Below are positions 6,146 through 31,600 of a DNA stretch of 32,000 nt, one piece after another. Position 1 is the stretch's first letter. Each line of letters starts with the position of its first letter. The stretch is from contig CAZXEQ010000002.1 in the NCBI GenBank assembly GCA_964640155.1, positions 60,001 through 92,000 on the forward strand, given 5' to 3'. The notes under the pieces are model-generated. The model searched no databases. It was not told where the DNA came from and worked only from the letters and a program-made list of their open reading frames with translations. The DNA is from an uncultured bacterium (GTDB lineage Bacteria > Auribacterota > JACPWU01). A program made the position numbers and the translations under genes.

Positions 6146-6177
6146 GCACTTCCTTACTATAAAATAGTTCTTATTAA

Positions 6178-7077
6178 CTATCTTTTTTGAACGATGATAA
6201 ACATAATATCCCAAAGATTCATGGGAAGGACTATCTTGCTTAATGATTTCCTTAAACTTGACCATTTAAGATAAATTTGTCCTAAATTAAAAGATTTAAT
6301 TAATCTTTCCAAGAGATAATCAATCGTAAAATGAGCAGATGGGTAAGAAACAGATACAACACTAAATCCTTCTTTCTGAAGCAGATCAATAAGACCCTCT
6401 TTAGAAAAAAAATATAAATGGTCTGGCAATGTCATTAAATGCCATTTTTTACCACAAAACCGTGCACAAAGACTTGAAATATCTCCTGTTGTTAGAATTA
6501 ACATCCCGCTAGATCTAAGGAGACGATAGGTTTCTTTGACAATGCTAACAGGATCTATAAGATGCTCGATCGTATCGAACATTGTAATCACGTCAAAAGA
6601 TCCTGACTCAAAAATACCTGGCCGAAACTCCCCTTGAAATACATTTAAACCTAAAGTATTTTTTGCATAGTCTACTGATTGCCGAGAAATCTCAATACCC
6701 GTCACTTTAAAGTAATCTTGAGCAAGTTTCAGAAAGAATCCTGGGCCACAACCAATATCAAGTAAATTTCTTTCTTTAAGATATTCCTTGGATTCTAAAC
6801 AATTAAGAATTTTTTTTAAACGTTTATGAAAAGTCTTTTCAAATGCATCTTTAGAAGCATAGTAGTCGTCATATCCTGTTAAAATTTTATTTTTATCTGT
6901 ACGTTTATGATAATCTTCCTCATAAAGATTAACGAGATTCATCGGAAGATTAGATTGATCTAGAAATCCATTACCACAAGAATTACATCGATAAATCTTA
7001 AACCCATCTTTTTCACAATAGAGATCAATTTGTATATTTCTACAAAGCCGACAGGAAATTCCTTCAAAACTGTTCAC
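6178..7077 (-). CDS. SAM-dependent methyltransferase with N-terminal zinc ribbon
   Basis: 299 aa with a GTG start and AAGGGA upstream. It has a CRLC...CNSCG zinc ribbon, the LLDIGCGPGFFL motif I, FDVITMFDTIEHLIDP and SSGMLILTT. Confidence 0.75.
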   Translation of the reverse strand: MNSFEGISCRLCRNIQIDLYCEKDGFKIYRCNSCGNGFLDQSNLPMNLVNLYEEDYHKRTDKNKILTGYDDYYASKDAFEKTFHKRLKKILNCLESKEYLKERNLLDIGCGPGFFLKLAQDYFKVTGIEISRQSVDYAKNTLGLNVFQGEFRPGIFESGSFDVITMFDTIEHLIDPVSIVKETYRLLRSSGMLILTTGDISSLCARFCGKKWHLMTLPDHLYFFSKEGLIDLLQKEGFSVVSVSYPSAHFTIDYLLERLIKSFNLGQIYLKWSSLRKSLSKIVLPMNLWDIMFIIVQKR

Positions 7078-7095: not shown

Positions 7096-8034
7096 CTAAC
7101 TCTCGTTCAATGATTCTTCTTTTACAATAAAATCGGGTCTTTGTTTGGTTTGCGCATAAGTACGCCCTATGTACTCTCCCAAAATTCCTATCCCAATTAA
7201 TTGAACAGATCCTAAGAATAAAATACTTACAGTCAATGTTGCCCAACCAGGCGGAAATAAGATTTTAGCAGAAGAAAAAAAACCCATAACAACTAGCATT
7301 ATCATGAATACTGCATACATAACACATAAAAAAGCAATGAGTAGTCCTGTCCATAAAAAAACTCTAAGGGGAATCGTCGAAAAAGAGAAAATGCCATCCA
7401 GAGCAAAACCTAAATAATTTTTAAGAGAGAATTTTGATTCCCCTCTTTTTCGAGCCTCAACTTTATATTCTAAAGCTATTTTTTGAAAGCCTACCCAATC
7501 CACTAATCCTCTTAAGAATTTATGCCTTTCAGGAATACGATTAAGCGTATCCACCACTTTACGATCTAACAATCTGAAATCAGATTGTCCTCTTGAAAGA
7601 TCTAATTCGGACATGAAACTCATCAAACGGTAAAATATTTTTGAGAAAGAAGAATATCTTTGATGTTCCCCTGAAGCTTTGACGGTATAAACAATTTCAT
7701 GACCCTTCTTCCAAAGTCTAATCATCTGAGGAATAAGCTCAGGAGGATGCTGTAAATCCCCATCCAAAGAAATGACTGCATCTCCAGAAGCATAGGCAAG
7801 GCCAGCAAGAAGCGCCCCTTGATGACCAAAATTTCTTGAAAGGCTTAAAAATTTTATACGGCCATCTTTCTTTCTTAATTCTTTAATAGTCAAAAGAGAG
7901 TTATCCGTACTCCCATTATCTATAAGAATCAATTCAAAACTATCCTCCATATATGAAAGAGTTTTTACAACTCTCTCATATAGCTCAAGCAAATTTTCTG
8001 CCTCATTATAAATAGGAGAAATAAGGGAAATCAT
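7096..8034 (-). CDS. polyprenyl-phosphate glycosyltransferase (GT2; GtrB/ArnC/DPM1/CsbB-like)
   Basis: 312 aa with ISLISPIYNEAENL...LILIDNGSTDNS and ISLDGDLQHPP. Two C-terminal hydrophobic helices follow (LRVFLWTGLLIAFLCVMYAVFMIMLVV and ATLTVSILFLGSVQLIGIGILGEYIGR). This is the hallmark layout of lipid-phosphate sugar-charging GT2 enzymes. Confidence 0.75.
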   Translation of the reverse strand: MISLISPIYNEAENLLELYERVVKTLSYMEDSFELILIDNGSTDNSLLTIKELRKKDGRIKFLSLSRNFGHQGALLAGLAYASGDAVISLDGDLQHPPELIPQMIRLWKKGHEIVYTVKASGEHQRYSSFSKIFYRLMSFMSELDLSRGQSDFRLLDRKVVDTLNRIPERHKFLRGLVDWVGFQKIALEYKVEARKRGESKFSLKNYLGFALDGIFSFSTIPLRVFLWTGLLIAFLCVMYAVFMIMLVVMGFFSSAKILFPPGWATLTVSILFLGSVQLIGIGILGEYIGRTYAQTKQRPDFIVKEESLNES

Positions 8035-8039
8035 AGAGG

Positions 8040-8909
8040 TTAAAATAATTTTCCTATCTTCATATTAGAAATCATTTCTTTTAAGCCCTTATCTAAAGAA
8101 TACTTTGGTTTCCAATTAAATGTCTTCTTAACGAGATCTGTATTAACGGTGCAATCAAGAATATCTGCCTTTCTGCGCTGAGACATCACTTGAACAGGTC
8201 TTTTTTCCCCAACTAAATCACGAACCATATGGGCTACTTCTAAATTCGAATAACTTTTCCCATATCCCACATTGTAAATTCCTGTTTTCACAGGGTTTGT
8301 AAGGAGAATTTTTTCGATTAAAGAACAAAAGTCTTTACCATAAAGGTAATCCCTTTTGGGCTCAGGATCGTTGATCATCAAAGAAAGTCTTTTTCGGGCC
8401 AATTCTAACAAATCCGAGATAAGTCGACCAGGTATAGAATGCAAGCCATAAACATGAAACCCTCTTAGGATGACTAAAGGCATATTTGTAAAAGAAGCGA
8501 TTTGTCTACAAAGATCCTCACAGATTATCTTGCTTCCCATATAGGGATTGGCCGCATGCACAGGGTGAAGTTCATCAATAGGAAGGTATTGTGGGACTCC
8601 ATAAGCATACGAACTCATAAATAGAAATGCAGCTTTGGACTTTTGAGCAATTTCTAATGCCTTTAGCGTCACTCCAATGTTATTTTGATAAAAAAGAAGC
8701 GGATCTTTTTGGCTTTTTTCAATCGATGTTTTTGCAGCAAAATGCAAAATCCAATCTAACTTTTCAGGCAACCGTGTTTCTGTTTTTTTTTCTTCGCTAG
8801 AATCTCTTAAATAAGAATCTAATGAAAAGACCTCATGCTGTTTCTCTAATAGATAACTCAAAACACAAGAACCTAGTGCACCCGAAGACCCCGTAATTGC
8901 AATTTTCAT
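8040..8909 (-). CDS. NAD(P)-dependent SDR (RmlD/reductase-like)
   Basis: The track ORF begins at a TTG (8916-8918). The ATG at 8907-8909 gives MKIAITGSSGALG (Rossmann fold). A YMGSK YxxxK motif is present. Confidence 0.7.
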   Translation of the reverse strand: MKIAITGSSGALGSCVLSYLLEKQHEVFSLDSYLRDSSEEKKTETRLPEKLDWILHFAAKTSIEKSQKDPLLFYQNNIGVTLKALEIAQKSKAAFLFMSSYAYGVPQYLPIDELHPVHAANPYMGSKIICEDLCRQIASFTNMPLVILRGFHVYGLHSIPGRLISDLLELARKRLSLMINDPEPKRDYLYGKDFCSLIEKILLTNPVKTGIYNVGYGKSYSNLEVAHMVRDLVGEKRPVQVMSQRRKADILDCTVNTDLVKKTFNWKPKYSLDKGLKEMISNMKIGKLF

Positions 8910-8920
8910 AATGATCAAGA

Positions 8921-9889
8921 CTAAAGCTGATTAAGTTGAGAGCCTTTCTTATAAAAAAGCTCGTAATAACGTTTAAACCATTCGATCGTCTTAACAATGC
9001 CTTCTTCAAAAGAAATTTTTGATTTCCAGTTTAAATTTTTCTGTGCCTGATAGGAAGATCCAGACATCCTCCAAATTTCAGTAGGTCGATTGGGCAAAGC
9101 TCCTATCTTTAATTTAGAAGAAGAATTTGAAAGTTGATGAATCTTCCTAACCAAATCACAAATCGCAATTTCCTCCCCAGAGCATAAATTGATAACACCT
9201 CCATGTGCAGGTTTAGCTTCAGCAGCAGCTATGAATCCTTCTACAAGATTTTCTACATAATTAAACTCGCGCGTTTGCTTCCCTTCCGTTGTCTCAACAG
9301 GCACACCTTTAAGACATTTAATGATAATTTCAGGGATAACCGCTTTTTCACTTTGATAAGGGCCAAAAGCATTAAAAGCTCGTACACATACAATTTCTTT
9401 TCCGCTTTGTGTGCGTTTCATTCTTGAATAAAGTTCTCCAGCATATTTTCCAATCGCATACGGCGAAATCGGAGCTGGAAGAAAATCTTCTTTAAAAGGA
9501 ACTTCTTCCTGATATCCATAAACTTCGGAAGATGAGATATAAACAAAACGCCCATAATCTGGAGCAAACTCTAGAAGATTTGCCGTGGCTACTGTATTTG
9601 ACATTAATGCTTCATTAACATGTAGAAAACTATCCCCAACATGATTATAAGCCGCCAGATGAAAGATCACATCATAGCTTTGTCCATTGAATTGACGAAG
9701 AGAATCAATATTTTTTAAATCTGCCTCTATCGGAGTGATTTGATCCCATACCGAGCTTAAGCGAATATTATCATTAATGCTCTTATAGCGTACGACTACG
9801 GAGACATCCGCACCCTCAGAAATAAGGTGTTTTACCAAATGAGACCCGATAAAACCTGCACCTCCTGTTACTAAAAATCTTCTTTTCAC
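8921..9889 (-). CDS. NAD-dependent epimerase/dehydratase-family SDR (epimerase or decarboxylase-like)
   Basis: 322 aa with a GTG start preceded by GGAGGAG. Motifs are FLVTGGAGFIGSHL, SSSEVYG and YAIGK. Confidence 0.8.
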   Translation of the reverse strand: MKRRFLVTGGAGFIGSHLVKHLISEGADVSVVVRYKSINDNIRLSSVWDQITPIEADLKNIDSLRQFNGQSYDVIFHLAAYNHVGDSFLHVNEALMSNTVATANLLEFAPDYGRFVYISSSEVYGYQEEVPFKEDFLPAPISPYAIGKYAGELYSRMKRTQSGKEIVCVRAFNAFGPYQSEKAVIPEIIIKCLKGVPVETTEGKQTREFNYVENLVEGFIAAAEAKPAHGGVINLCSGEEIAICDLVRKIHQLSNSSSKLKIGALPNRPTEIWRMSGSSYQAQKNLNWKSKISFEEGIVKTIEWFKRYYELFYKKGSQLNQL

Positions 9890-10605
9890 TTCTCCTCCAT
9901 AGCAGTATAAAATTTTAGTCTTCTCTCCGCCTGCTTTAATTCATCTTGAGTATTGAAGGTTACTTGAAGACCCGAATAATAAAATGCCCCCAGCTTCTCC
10001 ATGCCCATCAAAATTTTATAAAAGGTTATGAGTCCTTCTCCATCAGGCAAATCAATCACTTTGGATGACACATAATCTAAAGCTGTATGACTAATCACAG
10101 CATACCCCATGTAATAATTAAGAATAGGCTTTTCCTTAAAAAATGTAACTTTATACTCGTGGTCAAATTCAACAAGACCAAAAGGACTCTCAATAGGTGC
10201 CACAACAATCGTAACTTCGTTTTTACTTTTATGATGAACATTTAGAAGTTTTTTTAGATTAAGATCTGCATAGGTATCACCGTAAGTCATAATCACTTCT
10301 GAACTAAAAAGGTCTCTTGCATGATGAATACGCTTTAAGATTCCAACATTTTCGCCTGCATCAGAAAACTCAATCCGAGCATTCCTATTAAAACGTTTCG
10401 CAGATTTTTGAATCATTTCCCCCTTATAGCCAGTACATAAAACAAAACGATCAAATCCTTGTTGAATATAATTCTCAAGTTTTCTCTTCAAAATCGTCTT
10501 GCCGTTCACTTTCAGAAGAGGCTTCGGGAGCCCTTCACCTACCTTACCCAAACGTCGCCCTCTGCCTCCACACATGATAAGTATCTTTGGCAAACCTGAT
10601 TTCAC
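9886..10605 (-). CDS. sugar-1-phosphate nucleotidylyltransferase
   Basis: 239 aa with a GTG start and GGAG upstream. ILIMCGGRGRRLG...LPKPLL is the nucleotidyltransferase signature, and CTGYKG is also present. It overlaps the downstream SDR by 4 nt. Confidence 0.75.
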   Translation of the reverse strand: MKSGLPKILIMCGGRGRRLGKVGEGLPKPLLKVNGKTILKRKLENYIQQGFDRFVLCTGYKGEMIQKSAKRFNRNARIEFSDAGENVGILKRIHHARDLFSSEVIMTYGDTYADLNLKKLLNVHHKSKNEVTIVVAPIESPFGLVEFDHEYKVTFFKEKPILNYYMGYAVISHTALDYVSSKVIDLPDGEGLITFYKILMGMEKLGAFYYSGLQVTFNTQDELKQAERRLKFYTAMEEK

Positions 10606-10633
10606 TCTTCACTCCATTGTTAAATTTAAACGT

Positions 10634-13393
10634 CTAATGATCATTGCGAGAAATTTGAGAGAAAGCACATTTCAATATTAAAAATGAAACTAAAAAAATG
10701 TAAGTTAACATCCCTAAATAAGTAATTATATGGCTCGATTTTAAGTGATTAAATTGAATTTGTTGAGCAAAAAATATTCCTAAATTTTTACCCATTATAA
10801 GATTAAAAACTACATATTGGGCAAGGGTTAAGAATAACATTATTCTTCGAAGAGGAATCCTTTTTATCGATGCAATGTAGGAGATGCAGAACGCTAATGT
10901 TATGGGGATTAAAAGGTAATAACCAAACATAACAAGTTCAGAATATTGTGTGTTTGGTAATGCAAGAATAATGCATGGAAAGAAGGCCAATAGAAATAAG
11001 ACTTTATGCTTGTTAAAAGAACTCATTACTCCCAAGAAAAATATGATAAATAACAAGGGAGAAAGAGTTAAGAATAATCCAAGATTATTCTTAAGCAAAA
11101 TTGAAGGAAGAACTGGGAGGAATATCCCAATTAACCTCAGGAAGAGATGAGTTTTGGAAACAGTGTGATCTAGGATAAGACCAGCGTAAGAACTTTCTAC
11201 TAGAGGGAGTGAAAATTTATAATGATAATAAAGCCAAAAGAGTAGCCAAGGAATACTGACACAGAAGAAAACTCCGAAACTAACAAACATCCATTTTAAA
11301 GATCGAAATTTTAGCGCAATGTAAATGAACAAAGATATCAAGTAGACAACGGCCACTGCGGGATGAATTAAAAAACTAATTGCCGCAATAAAACCTAATA
11401 GAAAATTAGTTTTTAGATTCTGTATCCCTCTCTTCTCAATAAGAAGAAGTATTAAGAATATAGGAAAGAGAGCACAGTATTTGTAATAAACTTCAAAACT
11501 TAAGGGAAGAAAAAAAAAGAAAAAGTTGAGCAGAATAGTATAAATGGTTAGTTGGGCAGTGAGCTTATTAAAAATTCTTTTGATGACAGTGTAGATGGGC
11601 AAAAGAAAAAGCCCCCCTAGGAGGGTTAGCAATTTTTGATATATAAAATGACTCTCTCCAAAAACATGAAGAAAGGGAACTGTCAACAACGGGAGTAGTG
11701 GCGTTCTTCTGAAAACGGCAAAACGATCTCCTAGAAATTCTTGCATATACGTGGAGGCAGGATCTAAATGATGCAGAAATACTTTGGCAATTCGCCAAGG
11801 GAATAAATTATCAGCGTGATACCCATAATAAGGCATCGGAGGAATGGTTACAGTGTCTAAGTAACTTTCAATATAAGGCAATGAAAACATCAAATCTCGA
11901 TGATGTTGATACAAAATGCTAAAAACTAAAAATAAAGGAAAAACGATTAATAATGCACGGTCTTGTTGTATGACCTTCTTCCACCACCCTTTGTACAAAA
12001 AGACTAAAAAACCTACGATGCTCATCAGCAAGATAAGATTATAGATGCCTAGTATTTTACTGATTAACCCTCCTAAACTCATAATCACATACAAAATGAT
12101 GCTAAAGAAAAAGCTAAATACAAACTTATCTTCTTCATCCAATATCCTCTCTGAAAAGGCTTGTGCAATGCAATATCCGGGGAAAAAGAGCATGATTAAA
12201 AAAAGAAAGGTGTATAGAAATGATGCTGGTAATGATTTGTTGTATTGTTTGAGATAGTGTACCATCCCCTTTAAAAGTGATACTTTCTCTCTCTCATATA
12301 AATAGACTTCTCCCACTTGGACCATGTGATCTAAAAAGGCCTTTGTAAATTCAATCTTGACCTGTGTTGGTTGATATTTCGGATTGATGTAATGCGTTAC
12401 TAGCGGTTCTCGATTATCCTTCCCTTCTCCTATGCTTATCCACTCTCCATTACATAATATCTCTATTCTGTACTCTGTCGCATGATACGATGTCGCACGA
12501 TGCAAATCTCCCCAAAAAAATATTCCCACTTTCCCAATCGGCCTTGGTTTCTCAAAATCAAACACTATTACCGCTTCATGCAGAGGATTATCTGGAATGG
12601 CCACTGGCCTCATCGTCAAAGGACTTCCATCTATAATATTCTTTGCCTTCTTGGCACTTTCACATACCACCTTAGCTTCATTTGCAATATTATGATATCG
12701 ATACCTCAATCGATTATTAATCCATCTCCCCTTCGATCCCTCTTTCCAAGTATTTTCTCTCGTTCTCTGAATCCCTTCCCACAGCATCCCCACCAAAGAC
12801 TGCTTCTTCCATACCTTTATTCCCCATTGTTCAACCAATATCCCATTATCCTCGGTCCGGCAAGCTCCTGAGAATCTTATATATAGCTTGTCCTTTAAAT
12901 ATTTACCCGGAATCGGAAGATCATGCTTTCCTTCAAACCATTCCTCTTTCTTTTCTTCTTCATCTTTCTCTAATCTCCAATCTATACCCTCCTCTACCAA
13001 TGTCTTCCAACACTTTTGATCTGAAGAAACAGACACCTTTACATACCCATTGTTCCCACATCTCTTTGTGAAAACATGTAATTTCCCTGTCTTAAATCCT
13101 TTGGGAAGCTCATACCCATAAATTATTTCTGTCTCTTCAGCTTTTCCTGGTGAAAACTTATCTCCTAGCGTTTTCCAACCTCGATTAACAAGTGCCAATG
13201 CAGTTTGATCCACTTTCTTCTCTTCAAATCCTTGAAAGAGTATCTTTGACTGTAACGGATTCCAGTCCCCTCCCCCATACATAAATTCACATCCTACGTC
13301 TTTATACAAAATGGGAAGAAATAAACCTGCGAGAATGAGAAAAATAAAGAAGATTAATTTGATAAGAGGGTATGCTGTTTTAGATAAAGTCAT
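10634..13393 (-). CDS. large polytopic membrane protein, tandem copy A: signal-anchor, ~200-aa unassigned domain, discoidin (F5/8 type C)-like domain, multi-TM GT-C/YfhO-like module
   Basis: 919-aa ORF.
- N-terminal hydrophobic helix: LIKLIFFIFLILAGLFLPIL.
- Soluble region: YKDVGCEFMYGGGDW....
- Discoidin-like segment, roughly 12290..12631: FDFEKPRPIGKVGIFFWGD...YHATEYRIEILCNGEW...VKIEFTKAF...VGEVYLYE.
- About a dozen hydrophobic segments by eye, with a conserved long loop: HHRDLMFSLPYIESYLDTVTIPPMPYYGYHADN...FRRTPLLP.
The coding call is strong; the functional call is inference. Confidence 0.85.
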   Translation of the reverse strand: MTLSKTAYPLIKLIFFIFLILAGLFLPILYKDVGCEFMYGGGDWNPLQSKILFQGFEEKKVDQTALALVNRGWKTLGDKFSPGKAEETEIIYGYELPKGFKTGKLHVFTKRCGNNGYVKVSVSSDQKCWKTLVEEGIDWRLEKDEEEKKEEWFEGKHDLPIPGKYLKDKLYIRFSGACRTEDNGILVEQWGIKVWKKQSLVGMLWEGIQRTRENTWKEGSKGRWINNRLRYRYHNIANEAKVVCESAKKAKNIIDGSPLTMRPVAIPDNPLHEAVIVFDFEKPRPIGKVGIFFWGDLHRATSYHATEYRIEILCNGEWISIGEGKDNREPLVTHYINPKYQPTQVKIEFTKAFLDHMVQVGEVYLYEREKVSLLKGMVHYLKQYNKSLPASFLYTFLFLIMLFFPGYCIAQAFSERILDEEDKFVFSFFFSIILYVIMSLGGLISKILGIYNLILLMSIVGFLVFLYKGWWKKVIQQDRALLIVFPLFLVFSILYQHHRDLMFSLPYIESYLDTVTIPPMPYYGYHADNLFPWRIAKVFLHHLDPASTYMQEFLGDRFAVFRRTPLLPLLTVPFLHVFGESHFIYQKLLTLLGGLFLLPIYTVIKRIFNKLTAQLTIYTILLNFFFFFLPLSFEVYYKYCALFPIFLILLLIEKRGIQNLKTNFLLGFIAAISFLIHPAVAVVYLISLFIYIALKFRSLKWMFVSFGVFFCVSIPWLLFWLYYHYKFSLPLVESSYAGLILDHTVSKTHLFLRLIGIFLPVLPSILLKNNLGLFLTLSPLLFIIFFLGVMSSFNKHKVLFLLAFFPCIILALPNTQYSELVMFGYYLLIPITLAFCISYIASIKRIPLRRIMLFLTLAQYVVFNLIMGKNLGIFFAQQIQFNHLKSSHIITYLGMLTYIFLVSFLILKCAFSQISRNDH
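10765..13243. repeat. identical core of tandem direct repeat, copy A (partner 13707..16185, period 2942 bp)
   Basis: Every line I compared by eye is identical at an offset of 2942. Examples are 10765 vs 13707, 11161 vs 14103, 12001 vs 14943 and 12901 vs 15843. Four antisense ORFs recur with identical proteins at the same offset. Identity breaks at 10764/13706 (t vs g) and at 13244/16186 (c vs t). Confidence 0.9.
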
Positions 13394-13406
13394 AATAATT
13401 TGGCGT

Positions 13407-13435
13407 ATTTTAGCCTTTTTCTTTTTTTATTTACA
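13407..13435 (-). promoter_or_regulatory. candidate promoter of copy A (TGTAAA-17-TAAAAT)
   Basis: The minus strand reads ...TGTAAATAAAAAAAGAAAAAGGCTAAAATacgccaaattattATG. The -10 is good, the -35 is weak, there is no SD, and only 13 nt separate the -10 from the ATG, so the mRNA would be near-leaderless. The same arrangement is conserved upstream of copy B. Confidence 0.3.
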
Positions 13436-13560
13436 GTCTTTTTAGAGAAGGGGACAAAGAGGGGAGACAAAAATGAGGGGAAACCGTTTTATTCCATAAC
13501 CGTTACATTATTGTATTATAAGTATTTTTGATAACCCTGATTTCATCCTTCACTTCTTTT

Positions 13561-16335
13561 CTAAAAAACACGTCTTAAATTCTCATTTTGAAGATTTTGA
13601 GAGAAAGCACATCGCGCTATTAAGAATGAGACTAAAAATACATAAATCAACATCCCAAAATAAGTAACGATATGATCTGACTTCAAATAGATTAATTGAA
13701 TTTGTGGAGCAAAAAATATTCCTAAATTTTTACCCATTATAAGATTAAAAACTACATATTGGGCAAGGGTTAAGAATAACATTATTCTTCGAAGAGGAAT
13801 CCTTTTTATCGATGCAATGTAGGAGATGCAGAACGCTAATGTTATGGGGATTAAAAGGTAATAACCAAACATAACAAGTTCAGAATATTGTGTGTTTGGT
13901 AATGCAAGAATAATGCATGGAAAGAAGGCCAATAGAAATAAGACTTTATGCTTGTTAAAAGAACTCATTACTCCCAAGAAAAATATGATAAATAACAAGG
14001 GAGAAAGAGTTAAGAATAATCCAAGATTATTCTTAAGCAAAATTGAAGGAAGAACTGGGAGGAATATCCCAATTAACCTCAGGAAGAGATGAGTTTTGGA
14101 AACAGTGTGATCTAGGATAAGACCAGCGTAAGAACTTTCTACTAGAGGGAGTGAAAATTTATAATGATAATAAAGCCAAAAGAGTAGCCAAGGAATACTG
14201 ACACAGAAGAAAACTCCGAAACTAACAAACATCCATTTTAAAGATCGAAATTTTAGCGCAATGTAAATGAACAAAGATATCAAGTAGACAACGGCCACTG
14301 CGGGATGAATTAAAAAACTAATTGCCGCAATAAAACCTAATAGAAAATTAGTTTTTAGATTCTGTATCCCTCTCTTCTCAATAAGAAGAAGTATTAAGAA
14401 TATAGGAAAGAGAGCACAGTATTTGTAATAAACTTCAAAACTTAAGGGAAGAAAAAAAAAGAAAAAGTTGAGCAGAATAGTATAAATGGTTAGTTGGGCA
14501 GTGAGCTTATTAAAAATTCTTTTGATGACAGTGTAGATGGGCAAAAGAAAAAGCCCCCCTAGGAGGGTTAGCAATTTTTGATATATAAAATGACTCTCTC
14601 CAAAAACATGAAGAAAGGGAACTGTCAACAACGGGAGTAGTGGCGTTCTTCTGAAAACGGCAAAACGATCTCCTAGAAATTCTTGCATATACGTGGAGGC
14701 AGGATCTAAATGATGCAGAAATACTTTGGCAATTCGCCAAGGGAATAAATTATCAGCGTGATACCCATAATAAGGCATCGGAGGAATGGTTACAGTGTCT
14801 AAGTAACTTTCAATATAAGGCAATGAAAACATCAAATCTCGATGATGTTGATACAAAATGCTAAAAACTAAAAATAAAGGAAAAACGATTAATAATGCAC
14901 GGTCTTGTTGTATGACCTTCTTCCACCACCCTTTGTACAAAAAGACTAAAAAACCTACGATGCTCATCAGCAAGATAAGATTATAGATGCCTAGTATTTT
15001 ACTGATTAACCCTCCTAAACTCATAATCACATACAAAATGATGCTAAAGAAAAAGCTAAATACAAACTTATCTTCTTCATCCAATATCCTCTCTGAAAAG
15101 GCTTGTGCAATGCAATATCCGGGGAAAAAGAGCATGATTAAAAAAAGAAAGGTGTATAGAAATGATGCTGGTAATGATTTGTTGTATTGTTTGAGATAGT
15201 GTACCATCCCCTTTAAAAGTGATACTTTCTCTCTCTCATATAAATAGACTTCTCCCACTTGGACCATGTGATCTAAAAAGGCCTTTGTAAATTCAATCTT
15301 GACCTGTGTTGGTTGATATTTCGGATTGATGTAATGCGTTACTAGCGGTTCTCGATTATCCTTCCCTTCTCCTATGCTTATCCACTCTCCATTACATAAT
15401 ATCTCTATTCTGTACTCTGTCGCATGATACGATGTCGCACGATGCAAATCTCCCCAAAAAAATATTCCCACTTTCCCAATCGGCCTTGGTTTCTCAAAAT
15501 CAAACACTATTACCGCTTCATGCAGAGGATTATCTGGAATGGCCACTGGCCTCATCGTCAAAGGACTTCCATCTATAATATTCTTTGCCTTCTTGGCACT
15601 TTCACATACCACCTTAGCTTCATTTGCAATATTATGATATCGATACCTCAATCGATTATTAATCCATCTCCCCTTCGATCCCTCTTTCCAAGTATTTTCT
15701 CTCGTTCTCTGAATCCCTTCCCACAGCATCCCCACCAAAGACTGCTTCTTCCATACCTTTATTCCCCATTGTTCAACCAATATCCCATTATCCTCGGTCC
15801 GGCAAGCTCCTGAGAATCTTATATATAGCTTGTCCTTTAAATATTTACCCGGAATCGGAAGATCATGCTTTCCTTCAAACCATTCCTCTTTCTTTTCTTC
15901 TTCATCTTTCTCTAATCTCCAATCTATACCCTCCTCTACCAATGTCTTCCAACACTTTTGATCTGAAGAAACAGACACCTTTACATACCCATTGTTCCCA
16001 CATCTCTTTGTGAAAACATGTAATTTCCCTGTCTTAAATCCTTTGGGAAGCTCATACCCATAAATTATTTCTGTCTCTTCAGCTTTTCCTGGTGAAAACT
16101 TATCTCCTAGCGTTTTCCAACCTCGATTAACAAGTGCCAATGCAGTTTGATCCACTTTCTTCTCTTCAAATCCTTGAAAGAGTATTTTAGAATGTTCAGG
16201 TCTCCAATCTCCTCCCCCATACATAAATTCACATCCTACATCTTTATACAAAATGGGAAAAAATAGACCTGCGAGAATAAAGAAAAGAAAGAAAATTAAT
16301 TTGATAAGGATCTGAGGTTTTTTAGTTGGGGTCAT
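13561..16335 (-). CDS. large polytopic membrane protein, tandem copy B (same architecture as copy A)
   Basis: 924-aa ORF. In the ORF track, its protein is identical to copy A from residue ~51 to ~876. It differs only in the first ~50 and last ~45 residues. Confidence 0.85.
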   Translation of the reverse strand: MTPTKKPQILIKLIFFLFFILAGLFFPILYKDVGCEFMYGGGDWRPEHSKILFQGFEEKKVDQTALALVNRGWKTLGDKFSPGKAEETEIIYGYELPKGFKTGKLHVFTKRCGNNGYVKVSVSSDQKCWKTLVEEGIDWRLEKDEEEKKEEWFEGKHDLPIPGKYLKDKLYIRFSGACRTEDNGILVEQWGIKVWKKQSLVGMLWEGIQRTRENTWKEGSKGRWINNRLRYRYHNIANEAKVVCESAKKAKNIIDGSPLTMRPVAIPDNPLHEAVIVFDFEKPRPIGKVGIFFWGDLHRATSYHATEYRIEILCNGEWISIGEGKDNREPLVTHYINPKYQPTQVKIEFTKAFLDHMVQVGEVYLYEREKVSLLKGMVHYLKQYNKSLPASFLYTFLFLIMLFFPGYCIAQAFSERILDEEDKFVFSFFFSIILYVIMSLGGLISKILGIYNLILLMSIVGFLVFLYKGWWKKVIQQDRALLIVFPLFLVFSILYQHHRDLMFSLPYIESYLDTVTIPPMPYYGYHADNLFPWRIAKVFLHHLDPASTYMQEFLGDRFAVFRRTPLLPLLTVPFLHVFGESHFIYQKLLTLLGGLFLLPIYTVIKRIFNKLTAQLTIYTILLNFFFFFLPLSFEVYYKYCALFPIFLILLLIEKRGIQNLKTNFLLGFIAAISFLIHPAVAVVYLISLFIYIALKFRSLKWMFVSFGVFFCVSIPWLLFWLYYHYKFSLPLVESSYAGLILDHTVSKTHLFLRLIGIFLPVLPSILLKNNLGLFLTLSPLLFIIFFLGVMSSFNKHKVLFLLAFFPCIILALPNTQYSELVMFGYYLLIPITLAFCISYIASIKRIPLRRIMLFLTLAQYVVFNLIMGKNLGIFFAPQIQLIYLKSDHIVTYFGMLIYVFLVSFLIARCAFSQNLQNENLRRVF
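13707..16185. repeat. identical core of tandem direct repeat, copy B
   Basis: See copy A. The flanks beyond the core (13561..13706 and 16186..16400) are homologous to copy A's flanks but clearly diverged, with substitutions and indels. Confidence 0.9.
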
Positions 16336-16347
16336 AAAATTGGGTGT

Positions 16348-16376
16348 ATTCTATCTTTTTTCTCTTTTTATTTACA
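16348..16376 (-). promoter_or_regulatory. candidate promoter of copy B (TGTAAA-17-TAGAAT)
   Basis: The minus strand reads ...TGTAAATAAAAAGAGAAAAAAGATAGAATacacccaattttATG. It is homologous to the copy A upstream region, has no SD, and has 12 nt between the -10 and the ATG. Confidence 0.3.
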
Positions 16377-16400
16377 CTTTTTAGAGAATGGGGGGGAGTT

Positions 16401-19400
16401 TTATTCTGTAATCACAAGGTTGTCATGAGTTATGCTACCTGCGGAATATCCGCTTGCAAAGCCCACTGACTTTTTAGGGAAACTGGAGACTTCGACAGAC
16501 TCATTAGAAAAAATGGTTGCTCCATCCATTACGAGTGTCATCGTCGCATAGGGACTCGCATTTGTAATAGTTACTCTCACGTGATGGCTAACTCCTTTGG
16601 TCATCGTACTTGTATACCAGCGGTAACTGCCTGCATAACCTTCATAAGGGCCATCCCTTATTCCATAGCGATTTGGGCAAATATCAACATGAATGCCCCG
16701 ATATACCAATCCTCCCCAACCATCACTTGTATTACTAAACGTCACATCATAGTCAATCGTGATATTGCGCCCACTCACATCTACGTCATAGGGCCAAATA
16801 AAGCTATATCCACCAGATCCCACAACTGAACCTATTAAAGCTCCCGAACTAAGAGCCCAATTGATATTTGTTAAAGAACCGCTGATAATCCAATTGCTGA
16901 TGCTACTAAAATCAAAACTTGAAGTGATTGTCCCTACCGGCTGTAACTGAGTTATATCTTTAATCATAATATTATCTATTTGATAATTGTTCCCAACTCC
17001 ACTGTGAGGAGAAAGGAAACCCATCCCTGTACTTGCAAAACTTCCCACTTGTATAGGTTCATTTGTAAAAATAGGTTTGCCATCTACATATAAATCACTC
17101 AGATAATAAGGGCTTGCCTGTCGAATAAGTAAAATCACATGATGCGTTGCACCGCGAGAGACCCCACTGAACCAACGATAAGTTCCTGGATATCCTTCGT
17201 AGATTCCATCTCGCCATCCAATTCGATTAGGATTGAGATCCAGTGAAATTCCACGAAAGCGTACGCCACCCCACCCATCTGAATTATTAAAAACAACATC
17301 ATATTCTATAGCAAGTTCACTGAAGCTCGCTAAATTTAATCCCGTATTATCAAGCATAGAATAGCCCCCCGTTCCTACAACTGACGCTTGAAGCTTGTTG
17401 GATGCAATCGTCCAATCTATATTACTCACTGCACCGCTCTCAACCCATCCCGAAGGAAGAGAAGCACCATCAAAGCTCTCTTGATAAATCAATCCTGGAT
17501 TAGAACTCGGAACAACAACTGCAATAGTAATTGTTTCTGTATCCGTAAGACTCCCATCACTCGCTCTAATAGTTACTGTATAGGTTCCTGCATCTGATTC
17601 TATTGTTGTCCAAGTAAACACTCCAGTATTCGTATTAATACTTGCTCCTGTAGGTAGGCCTGTAGCACTATAAGTAATCGTACCAGCATTCATATCAATA
17701 GCTTTAGCCTGAAAAGTCAAGGTTCGTCCAGCCGTGACTCTTTGATTGCCAATGGCGTCTAAAACAGGAGCAAAATTAGCTCCAGCAGTAGCTGTAGTAA
17801 TATTTAAACTATCATTGGTTGTGCTCCCTGTGAAATAATTTGAAATGAATCCAACAGTTGTATCAGGATAACTGTTAACTTCAATCGCTTCACCGGTAAA
17901 AATAGCCGTTCCGTCGACATAAAGATTTGCAAGATCATAAGGACTATTTCTTTGAATCAATATCATCACACGATGGCTTCCTGCACTAAGACCTGTAAAC
18001 CATCGATAAGTTCCAGGATGTCCTTCAAAACTTCCATCCCTAAATCCTATTCTGGTTGTATTGAGATCAAGCCCTACTCCTCGAAACAACAACCCTCCCC
18101 AATTTTGAGGCGTGACATCATATTCCAATAACACATCTTTTCCACTCACATCCAAAAGAGCATGTTTTAAATAGCCGTAGCCTGTCCCTGATACACCGCT
18201 TACCACAGTTGATGTTAGAGCCCCTGAACTTACTGCCCATGCAATATTGGCATTTCCACTTGCTATCCAGGCTCCAAAATCTCCAGCATTAAAATTTTCT
18301 GTTAAAGGAAGAAGCATGGGATTAGGTTTAGGCCAAATTACAAAATTATCGTAGGTAACAGTTCCTGTAGAATAATTTGATACAAGTCCAACTGTATTAT
18401 TTAAGAAATTTCCGATCTGGATGGGTTCATTTGTAAAAATAGGTTTACCATCAATATAAAGATCACTTAACCAATAGGGACTGGCCATACGTAAAAGAAC
18501 TAAAACGTGATGTTGAACGCCTTTGGTCACTCCACTAAACCAGCGATAACTGCCTGTGAAACCCTCAAAATTTCCATCCCGCCAACCACTCCGATTCGCA
18601 TTTATATCCAGTTGCACGCCTCGAAACAACAACCCTCCCCACCCATCACTGTTATTACTAAAAGTGACATCATACGCAATAGCCAAAGAATTTATATTGC
18701 TTAGATTCAAACTACCGGGAGAAATAAAAGAATATCCTGCTCCTGCAGGTGTCGAAACCAGAGCATTGCTGTTTGCTGACCAATTTACCGTAGCTGCCCC
18801 ACTCGCGCTCCATCCCGTATAATTTCCATCATTAAAATTATCACTAAAAAGAGAACTGCTATAAGAAGCGGCATTGGAGGGATTAGTCCCTGCAACAATT
18901 TCATATAAATCGTTCATCCCATCACTATCCGTATCTGTATTATTTACATTCGTTCCATAAGTGGTCTCTTGCGTATTTGAAAGGCCATCCCCATCTGAAT
19001 CTGCAGCTGTTGCTCCTGAAATAATATTTGATATAAGTGCCGTATTACCTTTTTCATCTATTGTCTTAACTGCAAAATAATAAGTCGTCCCCTGACTCAA
19101 AGCATTAACTGTGAAATTTTCTGTAGAACCTCCAGATAAAGGAGAAGTCATTCCTATGATTCTTGTCGCTGAAGAAAAATTCCCTGCGGTAATGGCGGAG
19201 GTGGAATATCTTAAATCATAAGAAGAAGCTGTTCCAGAAGTAGCATCATCGCCTGGAGCTGTCCAGCGAAGCGTCATAGAACTTACACCTGAAGACGAGA
19301 TTGATAGATTTGAAACAGCAGCAGGTGGAATACCATCAAACATAGCAATTAAATCACGATATCTGTAATACTCTGGACGAAGTTGAAAAGGAGGAGTTGC

Positions 19401-20477
19401 TAAAAAATCTGTAATCAAATTAATCATAATCGAATACATATACCCATCTAAGCCATAGGAGATAATCTTGTCTCTTGTCCAGGAAGGCGTTTGATCAATC
19501 CCATTAAACGTGTTCAAAGCTGACTCAACCCAACCATAAATTCCATTTTGATGAGCAACTTGAGCTACTTTCTGACTTCCATCAGAAGGCTGAGCCAGAG
19601 GGCCTCCAAAACTAATCACTTTAAGATTTCGAGATAAAACTGCTTGGACTTGTTCTTCCATAATTTGTCCAATCCCAGGATTATGAGAAATTTTCAATCC
19701 CAATGGAATATCAGGTCTTCTCGTGTTTGCCAAAGTATAAATGGCTCTCATATAATCGTACATTTTTCCGTACCACCAACTGATGAAAACGTTGTAACTA
19801 GCTCCTGACCCATCACCGCTATTGGGACCTGAATAAGGCATTGCGCTTGGATTGCCTGTGTAAGCTCGCCAAGCTGCAATGGTATTAGCGTCAAATGCAC
19901 AATAATTGGCTCCATCAGGATAATAGGTTTCTCCCAAACTTCCTGTAGAAAGATAAATCACGGGAAAACTTTCTCCTGAAAATTCATTATAGAAAGCATT
20001 AATCAAACGATTCACGTAAAACAAAGTTTGTGGATGAAAAATATTGGGAGGATTAGCATCATTGTCAAAAACAGAATAAGAACCATTCTTTTTAATCCAA
20101 TGATAATTCGAATCTGAGTTTATCAACCAATTGGGAGGATAATGAATCGCAATATGAGGAATCCAAGTTAGACCTGCAGCTCTAGCTCTATTCATACATA
20201 AGCGAGCTGCTGCAAAATTAAAAGAACCATTTGATGTTTCAACTAATCTCCAAGGAATAGCATCAATAACAGCTTGCACTCCTATGTTTTTTAAATTTTG
20301 AAAAGAGGATTGATCATAGAACCAATCGCTTTGAGTCATGACAACCCAATGAATATTTGCAAGCTCATCGTCTGAAAAGGAAGTTTTAGAACTAAAAAAA
20401 AACAGAACAAGCAGTCCTAGAGCAACATGCTTTAAAAAGCTATTTTTTAAATTTTTTGCATCCTTAAGATTAAACAT
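16401..20477 (-). CDS. giant secreted multidomain protein: signal peptide, GH-A-clan-like TIM barrel (GH14/GH42-like), FN3, TSP3-like Ca-binding repeats, 2x ConA/LamG-like, cadherin/Ig-like, 2x ConA/LamG-like
   Basis: 1358-aa ORF; ATG at 20475-20477 with GAGG 6 nt upstream.
- Signal peptide (aa 1-35): a lysine-rich n-region, then VALGLLVLFFF, then SFS/DDE.
- GH-like domain (aa ~41-380, nt 19338..20357): ...GVQAVIDAIPWRLVE...NF..., PPNWL, and STGSLGETYYP, which recalls the GxxGELRYPSY catalytic-acid motif of beta-amylases.
- FN3 (aa 384-491, nt 19005..19328): LRWTAPGDD...YDLRYS...TYYFAVKTID.
- Ca-binding repeats (nt 18873..19004): DSDGDGLSN...DTDSDGMND.
- Ig/cadherin-like domain (aa 899-990, nt 17508..17783): APVLDAIGNQ...TYSATGLPTGASINTNTGVFTWT...GTYTVTIRASDG. 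Confidence 0.85.
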   Translation of the reverse strand: MFNLKDAKNLKNSFLKHVALGLLVLFFFSSKTSFSDDELANIHWVVMTQSDWFYDQSSFQNLKNIGVQAVIDAIPWRLVETSNGSFNFAAARLCMNRARAAGLTWIPHIAIHYPPNWLINSDSNYHWIKKNGSYSVFDNDANPPNIFHPQTLFYVNRLINAFYNEFSGESFPVIYLSTGSLGETYYPDGANYCAFDANTIAAWRAYTGNPSAMPYSGPNSGDGSGASYNVFISWWYGKMYDYMRAIYTLANTRRPDIPLGLKISHNPGIGQIMEEQVQAVLSRNLKVISFGGPLAQPSDGSQKVAQVAHQNGIYGWVESALNTFNGIDQTPSWTRDKIISYGLDGYMYSIMINLITDFLATPPFQLRPEYYRYRDLIAMFDGIPPAAVSNLSISSSGVSSMTLRWTAPGDDATSGTASSYDLRYSTSAITAGNFSSATRIIGMTSPLSGGSTENFTVNALSQGTTYYFAVKTIDEKGNTALISNIISGATAADSDGDGLSNTQETTYGTNVNNTDTDSDGMNDLYEIVAGTNPSNAASYSSSLFSDNFNDGNYTGWSASGAATVNWSANSNALVSTPAGAGYSFISPGSLNLSNINSLAIAYDVTFSNNSDGWGGLLFRGVQLDINANRSGWRDGNFEGFTGSYRWFSGVTKGVQHHVLVLLRMASPYWLSDLYIDGKPIFTNEPIQIGNFLNNTVGLVSNYSTGTVTYDNFVIWPKPNPMLLPLTENFNAGDFGAWIASGNANIAWAVSSGALTSTVVSGVSGTGYGYLKHALLDVSGKDVLLEYDVTPQNWGGLLFRGVGLDLNTTRIGFRDGSFEGHPGTYRWFTGLSAGSHRVMILIQRNSPYDLANLYVDGTAIFTGEAIEVNSYPDTTVGFISNYFTGSTTNDSLNITTATAGANFAPVLDAIGNQRVTAGRTLTFQAKAIDMNAGTITYSATGLPTGASINTNTGVFTWTTIESDAGTYTVTIRASDGSLTDTETITIAVVVPSSNPGLIYQESFDGASLPSGWVESGAVSNIDWTIASNKLQASVVGTGGYSMLDNTGLNLASFSELAIEYDVVFNNSDGWGGVRFRGISLDLNPNRIGWRDGIYEGYPGTYRWFSGVSRGATHHVILLIRQASPYYLSDLYVDGKPIFTNEPIQVGSFASTGMGFLSPHSGVGNNYQIDNIMIKDITQLQPVGTITSSFDFSSISNWIISGSLTNINWALSSGALIGSVVGSGGYSFIWPYDVDVSGRNITIDYDVTFSNTSDGWGGLVYRGIHVDICPNRYGIRDGPYEGYAGSYRWYTSTMTKGVSHHVRVTITNASPYATMTLVMDGATIFSNESVEVSSFPKKSVGFASGYSAGSITHDNLVITE
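16404..18851 (-). repeat. four intragenic ~170-180-aa beta-sandwich (ConA/LamG-like) repeats R1-R4
   Basis: Repeat coordinates are R1 18330..18851, R2 17802..18308, R3 16956..17492 and R4 16404..16925. All share ...YDVTF.N.SDGWGG..FRG..LD.N.NR.G.RDG..EG..G.YRWF.G...H.V......SPY...LY.DG..IF..E.I.V..F.... R1 and R3 are also visibly similar at DNA level, e.g. ggttcatttgtaaaaataggttt at 17056..17078 and 18424..18446. Confidence 0.8.
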
Positions 20478-20487
20478 AATTAGCCTC

Positions 20488-20528
20488 TAAAAATAAAAAC
20501 CCGTCTTTCGATAAAGGACGGGTTTTTA
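20488..20528 (-). terminator. intrinsic terminator hairpin immediately upstream of the giant gene's RBS
   Basis: Minus strand: AAAAACCCGUC-CUUUAUCGAAA-GACGGGUUUUUAUUUUU. The stem pairs 20500..20505 with 20517..20522 and is extendable through A-U pairs. The U-tract runs straight into AGAGG-N6-AUG. Confidence 0.75.
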
Positions 20529-20539
20529 TAATTTTTGCT

Positions 20540-20579
20540 AAAACGCAAAAATCGCCGAATATTTTCGGTGGATCGGCGA
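20540..20579 (-). terminator. second terminator-like hairpin in the leader
   Basis: Minus strand: CGCCGA-UCCACCGAAAAUAU-UCGGCG-AUUUUUGCGUUUU. An alternative inner stem is CCGAA-AAUA-UUCGG. The U-tract can instead pair with a downstream A-run (UUUUUGC-GUUUUA-GCAAAAA, 20532..20551), so its terminator status is uncertain. Confidence 0.35.
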
Positions 20580-20583
20580 GCAT

Positions 20584-20712
20584 AAAACCTAAAGGATCTT
20601 ACATCTTTCAGGTTTTGTAGCCCCGTATCTTTGCAGGCACGTGAATTCTAACTTAGTGCCTCTCAACAAGTTGAGGTCCCATTCTTTCGAATGGTTTGCC
20701 CTTATCGCATAT
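20584..20712 (-). promoter_or_regulatory. candidate c-di-GMP-I (GEMM-I)-like riboswitch aptamer with non-canonical block order
   Basis: The minus strand from 20705 reads AUAAGGGCAAACCAUUCGAAAGAAUGGGAC CUCAACUUGUUGAG AGGCACUAAGUUAGAAUUCACGUGCCU GCAAAG AUACGGGGCUAC, then a long hairpin AAAACCUGAAAGAU-GUAAG-AUCCUUUAGGUUUU.
- It contains a GAAA-capped hairpin inside a 26-nt block that is nearly identical, from memory, to the Vibrio cholerae Vc2 aptamer.
- It also contains GCAAAG and GGGGCUAC blocks, and CUAAG inside the second hairpin.
- The region lies between a strong promoter and terminator hairpins. Confidence 0.55.
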
Positions 20713-20756
20713 TCATTAAAACGATTCGAGACTTCTCAAAGAACTTCTACGCTCTA

Positions 20757-20785
20757 ATTATATTTTAAAAGGGCCATCAGGTCAA
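20757..20785 (-). promoter_or_regulatory. sigma70-type promoter, TTGACC-17 nt-TATAAT
   Basis: The minus strand reads TTGACC (20785..20780), a 17-nt spacer tgatggcccttttaaaa, then TATAAT (20762..20757). The predicted TSS is near 20750, giving a leader of roughly 270 nt before the ATG at 20477. Confidence 0.75.
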
Positions 20786-20867
20786 GGATTTATAAGGCTT
20801 TGAGGGGATACGAAAAATTGAAAAACTAAACTTCAAAAAGAATAGTCTTAATAAATTTAAAACTATT

Positions 20868-21875
20868 TTATTGTTTCCATTTATTTCTTGTGAGACCTTT
20901 TATTCCAAAAAAATTTAAGATTGTTCCAGAACCATACTCGATGAAAGTTAACCAACAAGCTAACGGGTGAAAGAACCAAGCATTATCTTTCTTTTTAAAA
21001 TATCCTCTAAAAGACTGAACAATCAAAGGAAAGACCAAAAAGCAGGAAAGCAAGAACTTGAACAACCCCTTCTTTTGGCTTTTCCAAGGGTATTTTCGAA
21101 CACCTAATTCATTGTAATAAAGATAATCTCTAATCCTTCTCTTCTGCTTGCGCATAAATTGACGGACACTGTTCCCACAAAAGAGATGAATAATACCTAT
21201 TTTTACTTTTGCAAAGTGAATGGGATGCTTCTCCATAAAACATGCCAGAATATCAATGTCAAAAAAATAGTCTCCAGCTAATTCGCCTTGCATGATTTGA
21301 CGTCGAAATATTGTCCCATTTGCTCCAATCGTTGGTATCGGATGAGATGAAAGCGTCACCTTAATCCAATTACCCTGATCATCCTGTTGAATAGGAAGCT
21401 CTGTCCATACTCCTGAGAGTAGATTGCGTTTATCATAATTTCCAAAGAAGAAACATATGGGGTCATTCACTCCCAATAAAGCGCAATAGCGATCAATAAA
21501 ACCATCTTCAGATCGATAAGTAAATTCCCAGGGTTCAGCTCCTAAAACATCCTTATCTTCAAAAGGTTGGGTCATTTTCAGAAGCCAGTCTTTTTGAGGG
21601 AGGAGATTATCAGAGTCAATAAAAGCAACCAAATCTCCTTGAGCTTTTTTAAGACCCACTGCTTTTCCTGCTTCTCCTGTTTTTAATGGATTTTGAAATA
21701 TTTTGGCGTTATATTCGCGAGCGATGTCAAGCGAGCGATCTTTGGACCCACCATCAGCAATGATCACTTCTACAAGATGAGCAGGATAATCTTGACTACG
21801 AATAGATTCTAAACAGCCTTGGAGAACACGCTCGCTATTAAGAACAGGGATCACAATTGAAATAGAAGGAAGCAT
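20868..21875 (-). CDS. GT2-family glycosyltransferase
   Basis: 335 aa with ISIVIPVLNSE...VEVIIADGGSKDRS and FIDSDN (DxD). Confidence 0.8.
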   Translation of the reverse strand: MLPSISIVIPVLNSERVLQGCLESIRSQDYPAHLVEVIIADGGSKDRSLDIAREYNAKIFQNPLKTGEAGKAVGLKKAQGDLVAFIDSDNLLPQKDWLLKMTQPFEDKDVLGAEPWEFTYRSEDGFIDRYCALLGVNDPICFFFGNYDKRNLLSGVWTELPIQQDDQGNWIKVTLSSHPIPTIGANGTIFRRQIMQGELAGDYFFDIDILACFMEKHPIHFAKVKIGIIHLFCGNSVRQFMRKQKRRIRDYLYYNELGVRKYPWKSQKKGLFKFLLSCFLVFPLIVQSFRGYFKKKDNAWFFHPLACWLTFIEYGSGTILNFFGIKGLTRNKWKQ

Positions 21876-21884
21876 AGAGTTAAT

Positions 21885-24340: not shown

Positions 24341-24358
24341 GAGAGAATTATTCCATAA

Positions 24359-26273: not shown

Positions 26274-26287
26274 TTTTAAATGAGCAA

Positions 26288-27232: not shown

Positions 27233-27322
27233 ACTTTGTTATTATATCCATAGCCTAACAGATAGGAAAAATATTTTTTAAATTAAAGAACGCGCATACT
27301 AAAATAGTGCTAAGTTTTTCTT

Positions 27323-29518: not shown

Positions 29519-29521
29519 AAA

Positions 29522-30610: not shown

Positions 30611-30652
30611 AAATGAAGATTTAGAAGGAAGACATCTTAATTAATAAATTTT

Positions 30653-31567: not shown

Positions 31568-31600
31568 ATAAAAAAACTTTCTTTCAAGTTAAAAAGAGAA

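Follow-up and report, generated by a model that had tools for sequence, protein, structure and literature searches.

How can two neighboring genes be identical, base for base, over most of their length and yet differ strongly at both ends? The question is posed by a tandem gene pair, copies A and B, in a 32,000-nucleotide (nt) stretch of DNA (hereafter, the window) from an uncultured bacterium of the Auribacterota (GCA_964640155.1, contig CAZXEQ010000002.1, positions 60,001–92,000). Both open reading frames (ORFs) are intact and both lie on the minus strand, so that the “first ~50 codons” of each copy stand on its high-coordinate side. An initial annotation of the window described a tandem duplication with an identical core and diverged ends, and proposed gene conversion or, failing that, an assembly artifact. 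We find that the pair is best explained, with a probability of roughly three in four, as an old tandem duplicate whose core is kept identical by ongoing gene conversion or unequal crossing-over.

The extent of the identity is directly visible. Ungapped comparison of the copies at an offset of 2942 nt returned one 2479-nt run without a mismatch (Table 1), a single clean tract with no scattered differences in the core, and thereby confirmed the core positions and the zero differences of the initial annotation. By the same comparison, the next-longest identical runs in the flanks of the core are 29, 19, and 17 nt. The boundaries are discrete, and the sharp drop in similarity described earlier is real: mismatches per 50 nt go from 0 within the core to 9–16 directly outside it (divergence of ~20–35%), and 12 A/B differences fall within sites 10733–10764 alone. 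At a flank-like divergence (~17%), an identical run of 2479 nt would have a probability of ~1e-200. A repeat search recovered the copy pair at a spacing of 2942 nt and the upstream blocks at a spacing of 2941 nt. The core takes up 84% of the duplicated unit and sits roughly in its center, leaving 189 nt on one side and about 267 nt on the other.

At the codon level, the A/B differences are confined to codons 1–50 and to codons 877 onward, where the tails differ in length by five codons (919 vs. 924 amino acids, aa); this agrees with the earlier description of the ends, as do the substitutions and indels that emerged when the regions upstream of A and B were aligned. The core comprises codons 51–876 plus one base and shows 0 differences in 2478 nt, such that nonsynonymous and synonymous divergence (dN and dS) are both zero over 826 codons. 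On the contrary, codons 1–50 differ at 30 of 150 nt (dN 0.15, dS 0.65) and codons 877–913 at 26 of 111 nt (dN 0.17, dS about 1.0). Because synonymous sites are identical too, protein-level constraint is excluded as the cause of core identity, and selection on protein sequence was rejected with it (core dS = 0). A simple recent duplication, already doubted in the initial annotation, is likewise excluded by the contrast between the core and the ends in dS.

The age of the duplication is recorded in the segment between the two cores (M; Table 1). In gene order, M consists of the diverged 3′ end of B (13561..13706), a 167-nt spacer with the duplication junction, and the diverged 5′ end of A (13244..13393). 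Directly after the B stop codon stands ATGAAATCAGGGTTATCAAAAATACTTATAAT (13546..13515), which matches the start of the NTP-transferase gene downstream of the pair (10605..10574); this remnant opens with ATG AAA TCA GGG, runs into a stop after 12 codons, and is 19% diverged. Thirteen bases past it, GGTTATGGAATAAAAC (13501..13486) resembles 16413..16398 and is probably what is left of the end of the upstream gene, which encodes a 1358-aa protein; this second stretch, short and AT-rich, is the weaker evidence of the two. The duplicated unit took in the very end of the upstream gene on one side and about 11 codons of the downstream gene on the other. As the NTP-transferase remnant is both 19% diverged and truncated by a stop, the age of the duplication matches that of the diverged ends, and the inter-copy segment reads, on its sequence, as a genuine, old tandem-duplication junction. 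Two paralogous copies with a junction remnant between them occur on one contig, and they are homogenized at synonymous sites. Because the junction remnant and the dS of the ends show the duplication to be old, we infer that divergence in the core has been erased by recombination between the copies.

Within M (13244..13706), the two inner diverged ends adjoin, and one event could have changed both, namely if a recent duplication had been followed by replacement of M with a diverged allele from a relative via homologous recombination. However, such a donor would itself have to carry the tandem arrangement, diverged donor core would be expected at either side of an imported tract (none is seen), and the junction remnants have decayed about as far as the coding ends, as they would in place over time. 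We consider this scenario barely credible.

Table 1. Features of the tandem pair and its surroundings, with the independently assembled Logan contigs that match the window (positions are those of the window).
Feature	Position	Strand	Evidence or remark
Copy A gene, 919 aa	10634..13393	-	ORF and translation, Pfam, hydropathy, AF2 models, Foldseek
Copy B gene, 924 aa	13561..16335	-	Architecture as in A; residues 51-876 identical to A
Identical core, copy A	10765..13243	-	2479 nt without mismatch at offset 2942; dN = dS = 0
Identical core, copy B	13707..16185	-	Same comparison; part reproduced by Logan contig L004
A diverged 3′ end (codons 877-919)	10634..10764	-	Codon comparison with B; tail length differs by 5 codons
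B diverged 5′ end (codons 1-50)	16186..16335	-	Codon comparison with A
Inter-core segment M, 463 nt, unique	13244..13706	-	Alignments, codon tables
NTP-transferase start remnant, decayed	13515..13546	-	26/32 identical to 10574..10605; marks 3′ end of unit
Filler between both remnants, 13 nt	13502..13514		Junction located about here
Probable remnant of the end of the 1358-aa upstream gene (last codons and stop)	13486..13501	-	13/16 identical to 16398..16413; marks 5′ end of unit
Conserved leader block directly upstream of the A ATG	13394..13453	-	82% identical to 16336..16394
Same leader block upstream of B	16336..16394	-	Nearly fills the 65-nt gap to the upstream gene stop at 16401
Paralog C, 731 aa	27323..29518	+	50% identical to A residues 225-910; without orphan N-terminal domain
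Logan contig L002 (run SRR8893623)	7844..10741		100% identity
Logan contig L003 (run SRR35242003)	9016..10772		One mismatch
Logan contig L004 (run SRR8893623)	15119..24741		100% identity
Logan contig L001 (run SRR8893623)	25783..32000		100% identity

Whether the second copy exists at all has to be asked, as the source is a metagenome-assembled contig. In its favor, A and B are both recorded from one 501,885-bp NCBI contig, and independent Logan contigs reproduce the right flank with the 5′ end of B and part of the core, and the left flank with the 3′ end of A (99.9–100%); specifically, L004 joins B's own 5′ end to 1066 nt of core. Several points nevertheless weigh against the interpretation given above. 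No independent assembly yielded segment M; L004 crosses position 16185 without the break expected from an M-to-core edge in the k = 31 graph of its run; graph assemblers pass one core edge twice and pop the bubbles formed by single-nucleotide polymorphisms, such that zero divergence and a copy number of two arise partly by construction; and no orthologous locus was found in the collections searched (5.8e9 proteins, GTDB genomes, and JGI metagenomes).

The first two of these points, together with the metagenomic source, would fit an artifactual second copy, arising either from the head-to-tail joining of two single-gene strains (one with A-type and one with B-type ends) or from spurious expansion of a repeat; the unbranched path of L004 from the right flank into the core would then reflect a single hybrid gene in SRR8893623. 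Yet, in place of the incoherent junction of an assembly artifact, M holds truncated, decayed stubs of both neighboring genes (32 nt and ~16 nt) that abut via a 13-nt filler. A chimera of strains would need full-length diverged flanking genes and a shared overlap, and there is no such overlap; strains 20% apart in the flanks and without recent transfer would not share an identical core of 2479 nt; and the 463 nt of M can only derive from reads that run into core at both ends. As M is unique sequence with core on both sides, a genome containing it must have at least two cores. The two-strain chimera was rejected on the anatomy of the junction, which also makes a wholly artifactual second copy appear unlikely; all points taken together, we give this explanation very little weight. 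The tandem duplication itself is held to be real with high confidence, because M contains short decayed stubs that abut via the filler.

What assembly may have touched is the degree of identity. In this account, the duplication and the near-identity of the copies are real, a few differing sites were flattened by the assembler or polisher into a “base-perfect” tract, and the true number of copies may exceed two. The window matches Logan contigs from a metagenomic run at 100% and hence has the origin of a metagenome-assembled genome (MAG); L004 ends within the core, at position 15119; the ends of L002 and L003, which stem from two different runs, fall at 10741 and 10772, on either side of the A/B-discriminating site 10742 (23 nt from the core) and exactly k = 31 from each other, which is the pattern of unresolved variant sites; and neither A nor B was assembled at full length in the Logan contigs. 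However, contig ends at low coverage can be random, and the contrast between the core and the ends (0% vs. 20–35%) is far too large for bubble popping. Low coverage, population variants, shifting conversion boundaries, or copy-number heterogeneity are all possible causes of these contig ends. The base-perfect identity and the exact copy number could be products of the assembler, and we judge this account somewhat unlikely though worth keeping in mind; it would alter the degree of identity, not its interpretation. Perfect long repeats in MAGs can be partly assembler-made, and read-level validation is needed before rates or copy numbers are inferred from them.

Under the favored explanation, an ancestral segment of ~2.9 kb would have been duplicated in tandem long ago; besides one gene of the CBM32 plus GT-C type described below, it would have carried a few terminal codons of the upstream gene and ~11 initial codons of the NTP-transferase gene. 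RecA-type homologous recombination between misaligned copies would since have overwritten one copy with the other repeatedly, either by non-reciprocal gene conversion or by unequal crossing-over that cycles between two and three copies, and the central 2479 bp would thereby never gather differences. The terminal ~190–270 bp of the unit would seldom be included, as homology stops at the unit ends, and once these ends had diverged, mismatches would block strand exchange and produce a sharp, self-reinforcing boundary.

Long-running concerted evolution would not be required if one very recent conversion event had occurred between paralogs that were diverged along their whole length, and the abrupt boundaries, with no gradient of divergence toward the unit ends, are what a single tract would give. 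RecA exchange needs perfect-match seeds, however, and mismatches abort strand exchange (the MutS barrier). These barriers disfavor a 2.5-kb tract between ~80%-identical sequences, in which the longest identical runs would be ~20–30 nt, as they are in the present flanks. In addition, a core that fills 84% of its unit and lies nearly in its center is what an edge effect at steady state, and not one random tract, would be expected to leave, and neither conversion nor unequal crossing-over reaches the termini of a two-copy array, such that sharp boundaries are themselves the expected steady state. For these reasons we favor recurrent homogenization, and consider a single recent event unlikely.

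Gene conversion and concerted evolution of prokaryotic paralogs are well established, with tuf, mtrA, fla, and amo as examples that include tandem pairs (PMC6053082; Santoyo & Romero, 2005, a review cited there), and cases in which concerted evolution has persisted for long are considered rare in prokaryotes (PMC6053082). The likeness to tufA/tufB and to the tandem mtrA and fla pairs (PMC6053082) is close: those copies, too, are identical at synonymous and nonsynonymous sites within one genome, an old duplication was likewise inferred from context, and RecA-type non-reciprocal exchange is the accepted mechanism. The present pair differs in that the copies are directly tandem, in that the tract ends ~150 nt inside each end of the ORF, with each copy keeping its own anchor and tail, and in that the searched collections contain no orthologs in which recurrence across species would show. 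Models of interlocus conversion of the Teshima & Innan type, mostly developed for eukaryotic segmental duplications, reportedly predict an edge effect by which the ends of a unit escape conversion. High divergence confined to the unit termini, with a sharp step to an undiverged interior, is common to those models and to this locus, which is a compact case within a 2.9-kb bacterial unit. We regard the locus as a fresh instance of a known process, and an unusually clean one; none of the defining tests for gene conversion applied to it speaks against this.

The gene-conversion interpretation of the initial annotation therefore is supported as regards old paralogs and a homogenized core, but not as regards selection on the ends or separate promoters. 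Specifically, the ends had been proposed to be kept distinct, possibly by selection. Their dN/dS of about 0.2 gives no sign of diversifying selection and shows only that both ends are functional (i.e., under purifying selection), and the stop of homology suffices to account for their divergence. Each copy had also been credited with a promoter-like element of its own. Although a block of ~60 nt before both ATGs is 82% conserved (Table 1), these leader blocks contain no Shine-Dalgarno-like motif and no convincing promoter consensus, sigma-70-like sites occur at chance level in a consensus scan (24 vs. 20.6 ± 4.9 in shuffles), and an Rfam scan of 10400..16700 gave no match. Terminator-like matches (10 vs. 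4.6 ± 2.0) all lie inside the duplicated ORFs, as duplicated pairs, and were not taken as functional. Upstream of A, the spacer has ~30 additional C/T-rich nt (13454..13485; CGGTTTCCCCTCATTTTTGTCTCCCCTCTTTGTCCCC) where B has only CTCCCCCCC (16395..16398), a polypyrimidine tract having expanded or contracted after the duplication.

Since a perfect direct repeat of 2.5 kb is easily deleted, the retention of both copies points to selection for two genes, and the selected benefit may lie in dosage or in the copy-specific anchor and tail. What the two genes encode bears on this. Copy A consists of a signal anchor (residues 10–28), an orphan domain (~29–225), a module resembling CBM32, or F5_F8_type_C (~247–370), and a GT-C-type polytopic membrane domain (~388–910). 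By hydropathy, a transmembrane segment at residues 10–28 is followed by about 14–15 transmembrane helices from residue ~388, which bears out the earlier proposal that the divergent N-terminus is a signal anchor. In the AlphaFold2 (AF2) model of A, confidence is good from residue ~225 on, whereas residues 24–222 have a predicted local distance difference test score (pLDDT) below 50.

The sole Pfam match in A is to F5_F8_type_C at residues 247–351, with 27.0 bits just under the curated cut-off of 28.2. Residues ~247–370 nonetheless show the CBM32 fold by two other lines of evidence: in a profile search against PDB sequences the module matched 2xqx_A (E 1.7e-6), and the best PDB matches of the AF2 model of A are CBM32 structures (4a42_A, Foldseek E 6e-6, template-modeling score 0.72, probability 1.00), with a beta-sandwich at these residues as in the Clostridium perfringens CBM32 modules (4a42, 2v72). 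Unlike those modules, it is joined to a membrane glycosyltransferase rather than a glycoside hydrolase.

Modeled alone, the membrane domain reached a pLDDT of 85.5 and a predicted template-modeling score (pTM) of 0.90. Its best structural matches are the GT-C enzymes PglB, AglB, STT3, ALG12, ALG9, DPY19, and AftA, though weakly (E ≥4e-3, template-modeling scores 0.35–0.43). None of A, B, and C matches Pfam PMT_2 (PF13231) above its curated threshold, whereas 9 of 28 aligned relatives do, with a best E of 3.6e-13 and in the part that corresponds to A residues ~560–720; one of them, P0007, scores 30.8 bits against a cut-off of 26.1. Residues D528 (in a YYGYHADN motif) and H677 are invariant among 28–36 family members; GT-C enzymes have a conserved acidic catalytic residue in an extracytoplasmic loop near the first helices, to which D528 may or may not correspond. 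These models point to a polytopic core with a predicted GT-C fold, and A and B share with the GT-C enzymes (PMT_2 or ArnT-PMT-like; PglB/STT3, ALG9/12, DPY19, AftA) a membrane domain of ~14–15 helices and a genomic context rich in GT2, GT4, and sugar-nucleotide genes. They differ from those enzymes in the extracytoplasmic CBM32-like module N-terminal to the membrane domain and in the ~200-aa orphan domain. On this modeling, the best reading of A and B is as GT-C glycosyltransferases that face the extracytoplasmic side, carry a CBM32-like module and a lineage-unique domain, and act in a surface-glycan pathway.

The orphan domain itself, an extracytoplasmic stretch of ~200 aa (residues ~29–230; 12704..13309 in A and 15646..16251 in B), follows the signal anchor and precedes the CBM32-like module. 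Among 1.84e9 protein representatives it is without a homolog, Pfam gives no match, and residues 29–225 show no similarity to the CBM32 module, to other parts of the window, or to family members. Paralog C and all other members of the family lack it.

Beyond A and B, an HMMER search of the 1.84 billion representatives found 68 relatives (E up to 0.001), counted as cluster representatives at 50% identity. They are typically 720–760 aa long and align from about A residue 225 on, the nearest ones other than the copies described here being at most 31% identical. Queried with A and with a profile of 28 family sequences, a word-indexed search of 5.8e9 proteins gave A/B and C alone, and no relative emerged when GTDB genomes and JGI metagenomes were scanned with A. 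With the family profile, a scan of GTDB recovered four distant relatives (JAHIFH010000049.1, JBDRHA010000007.1, CAZQFB010000001.1, and JBMORU010000001.1) of 27–34% identity, each in single copy within ±10 kb. The GTDB genome matches to the family are all MAGs of Patescibacteria, or the candidate phyla radiation (CPR; Shapirobacteria, Saccharibacteria, and others), and by these matches the CBM32 plus GT-C family appears restricted to CPR and rare. It is a rare and uncharacterized gene family. These matches by themselves would make a CPR MAG the very probable source of the window, whose GTDB lineage is Auribacterota; in genome-reduced lineages such as the Patescibacteria, duplicates are seldom retained.

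Within the window, the pair belongs to a large glycan-biosynthesis locus: the surroundings encode GT2 and GT4 transferases, sugar-nucleotide epimerases and dehydratases, two NTP-transferases, methyltransferases, a B12-radical-SAM enzyme, and a large, repeat-rich surface protein. Paralog C lies in the same locus, inverted relative to A and B and 11–14 kb away. Its DNA is at most 74% identical to theirs over 211 nt (28192..28402 vs. 11726..11936 and 14668..14878), on which ground it was rejected as a conversion donor. C is older than the A/B pair, and its presence implies that the family has expanded at least twice in this locus.

Two further observations concern neighboring genes. Directly upstream of the pair, a 1358-aa secreted or surface protein (16401..20477, minus strand) combines fn3, TSP3, and He_PIG domains with a ~180-aa unit repeated four times internally (DNA repeat families at 16613, 17168, 17996, and 18536; 62–71% identical), and this repeat domain carries no Pfam annotation. 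Two methyltransferase ORFs on the minus strand (5477..6265 and 6178..7077) overlap by 88 nt as listed, which probably reflects an upstream start over-extended by the first-ATG/GTG rule and no real overlap.

A bolder interpretation would have the locus as a long-maintained concerted two-gene system whose core serves as a recombination substrate that makes population variants: a hybrid of the B 5′ end and the A 3′ end by deletion, or at least three copies by amplification. The unbranched passage of L004 at 16185 and the contig ends of two runs that bracket site 10742 are hints in this direction. No hybrid full-length protein occurs in the 90% cluster, which has two members only. We put this idea forward as a decidedly unlikely one; if true, such recombination would act as a switch for the dosage, or for the pairing of anchor and tail, in a surface-glycan GT-C enzyme with a lineage-unique orphan domain. 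Independent of that idea, both copies presumably matter for surface-glycan synthesis in this organism, and the pair illustrates concerted evolution between tandem genes with textbook clarity.

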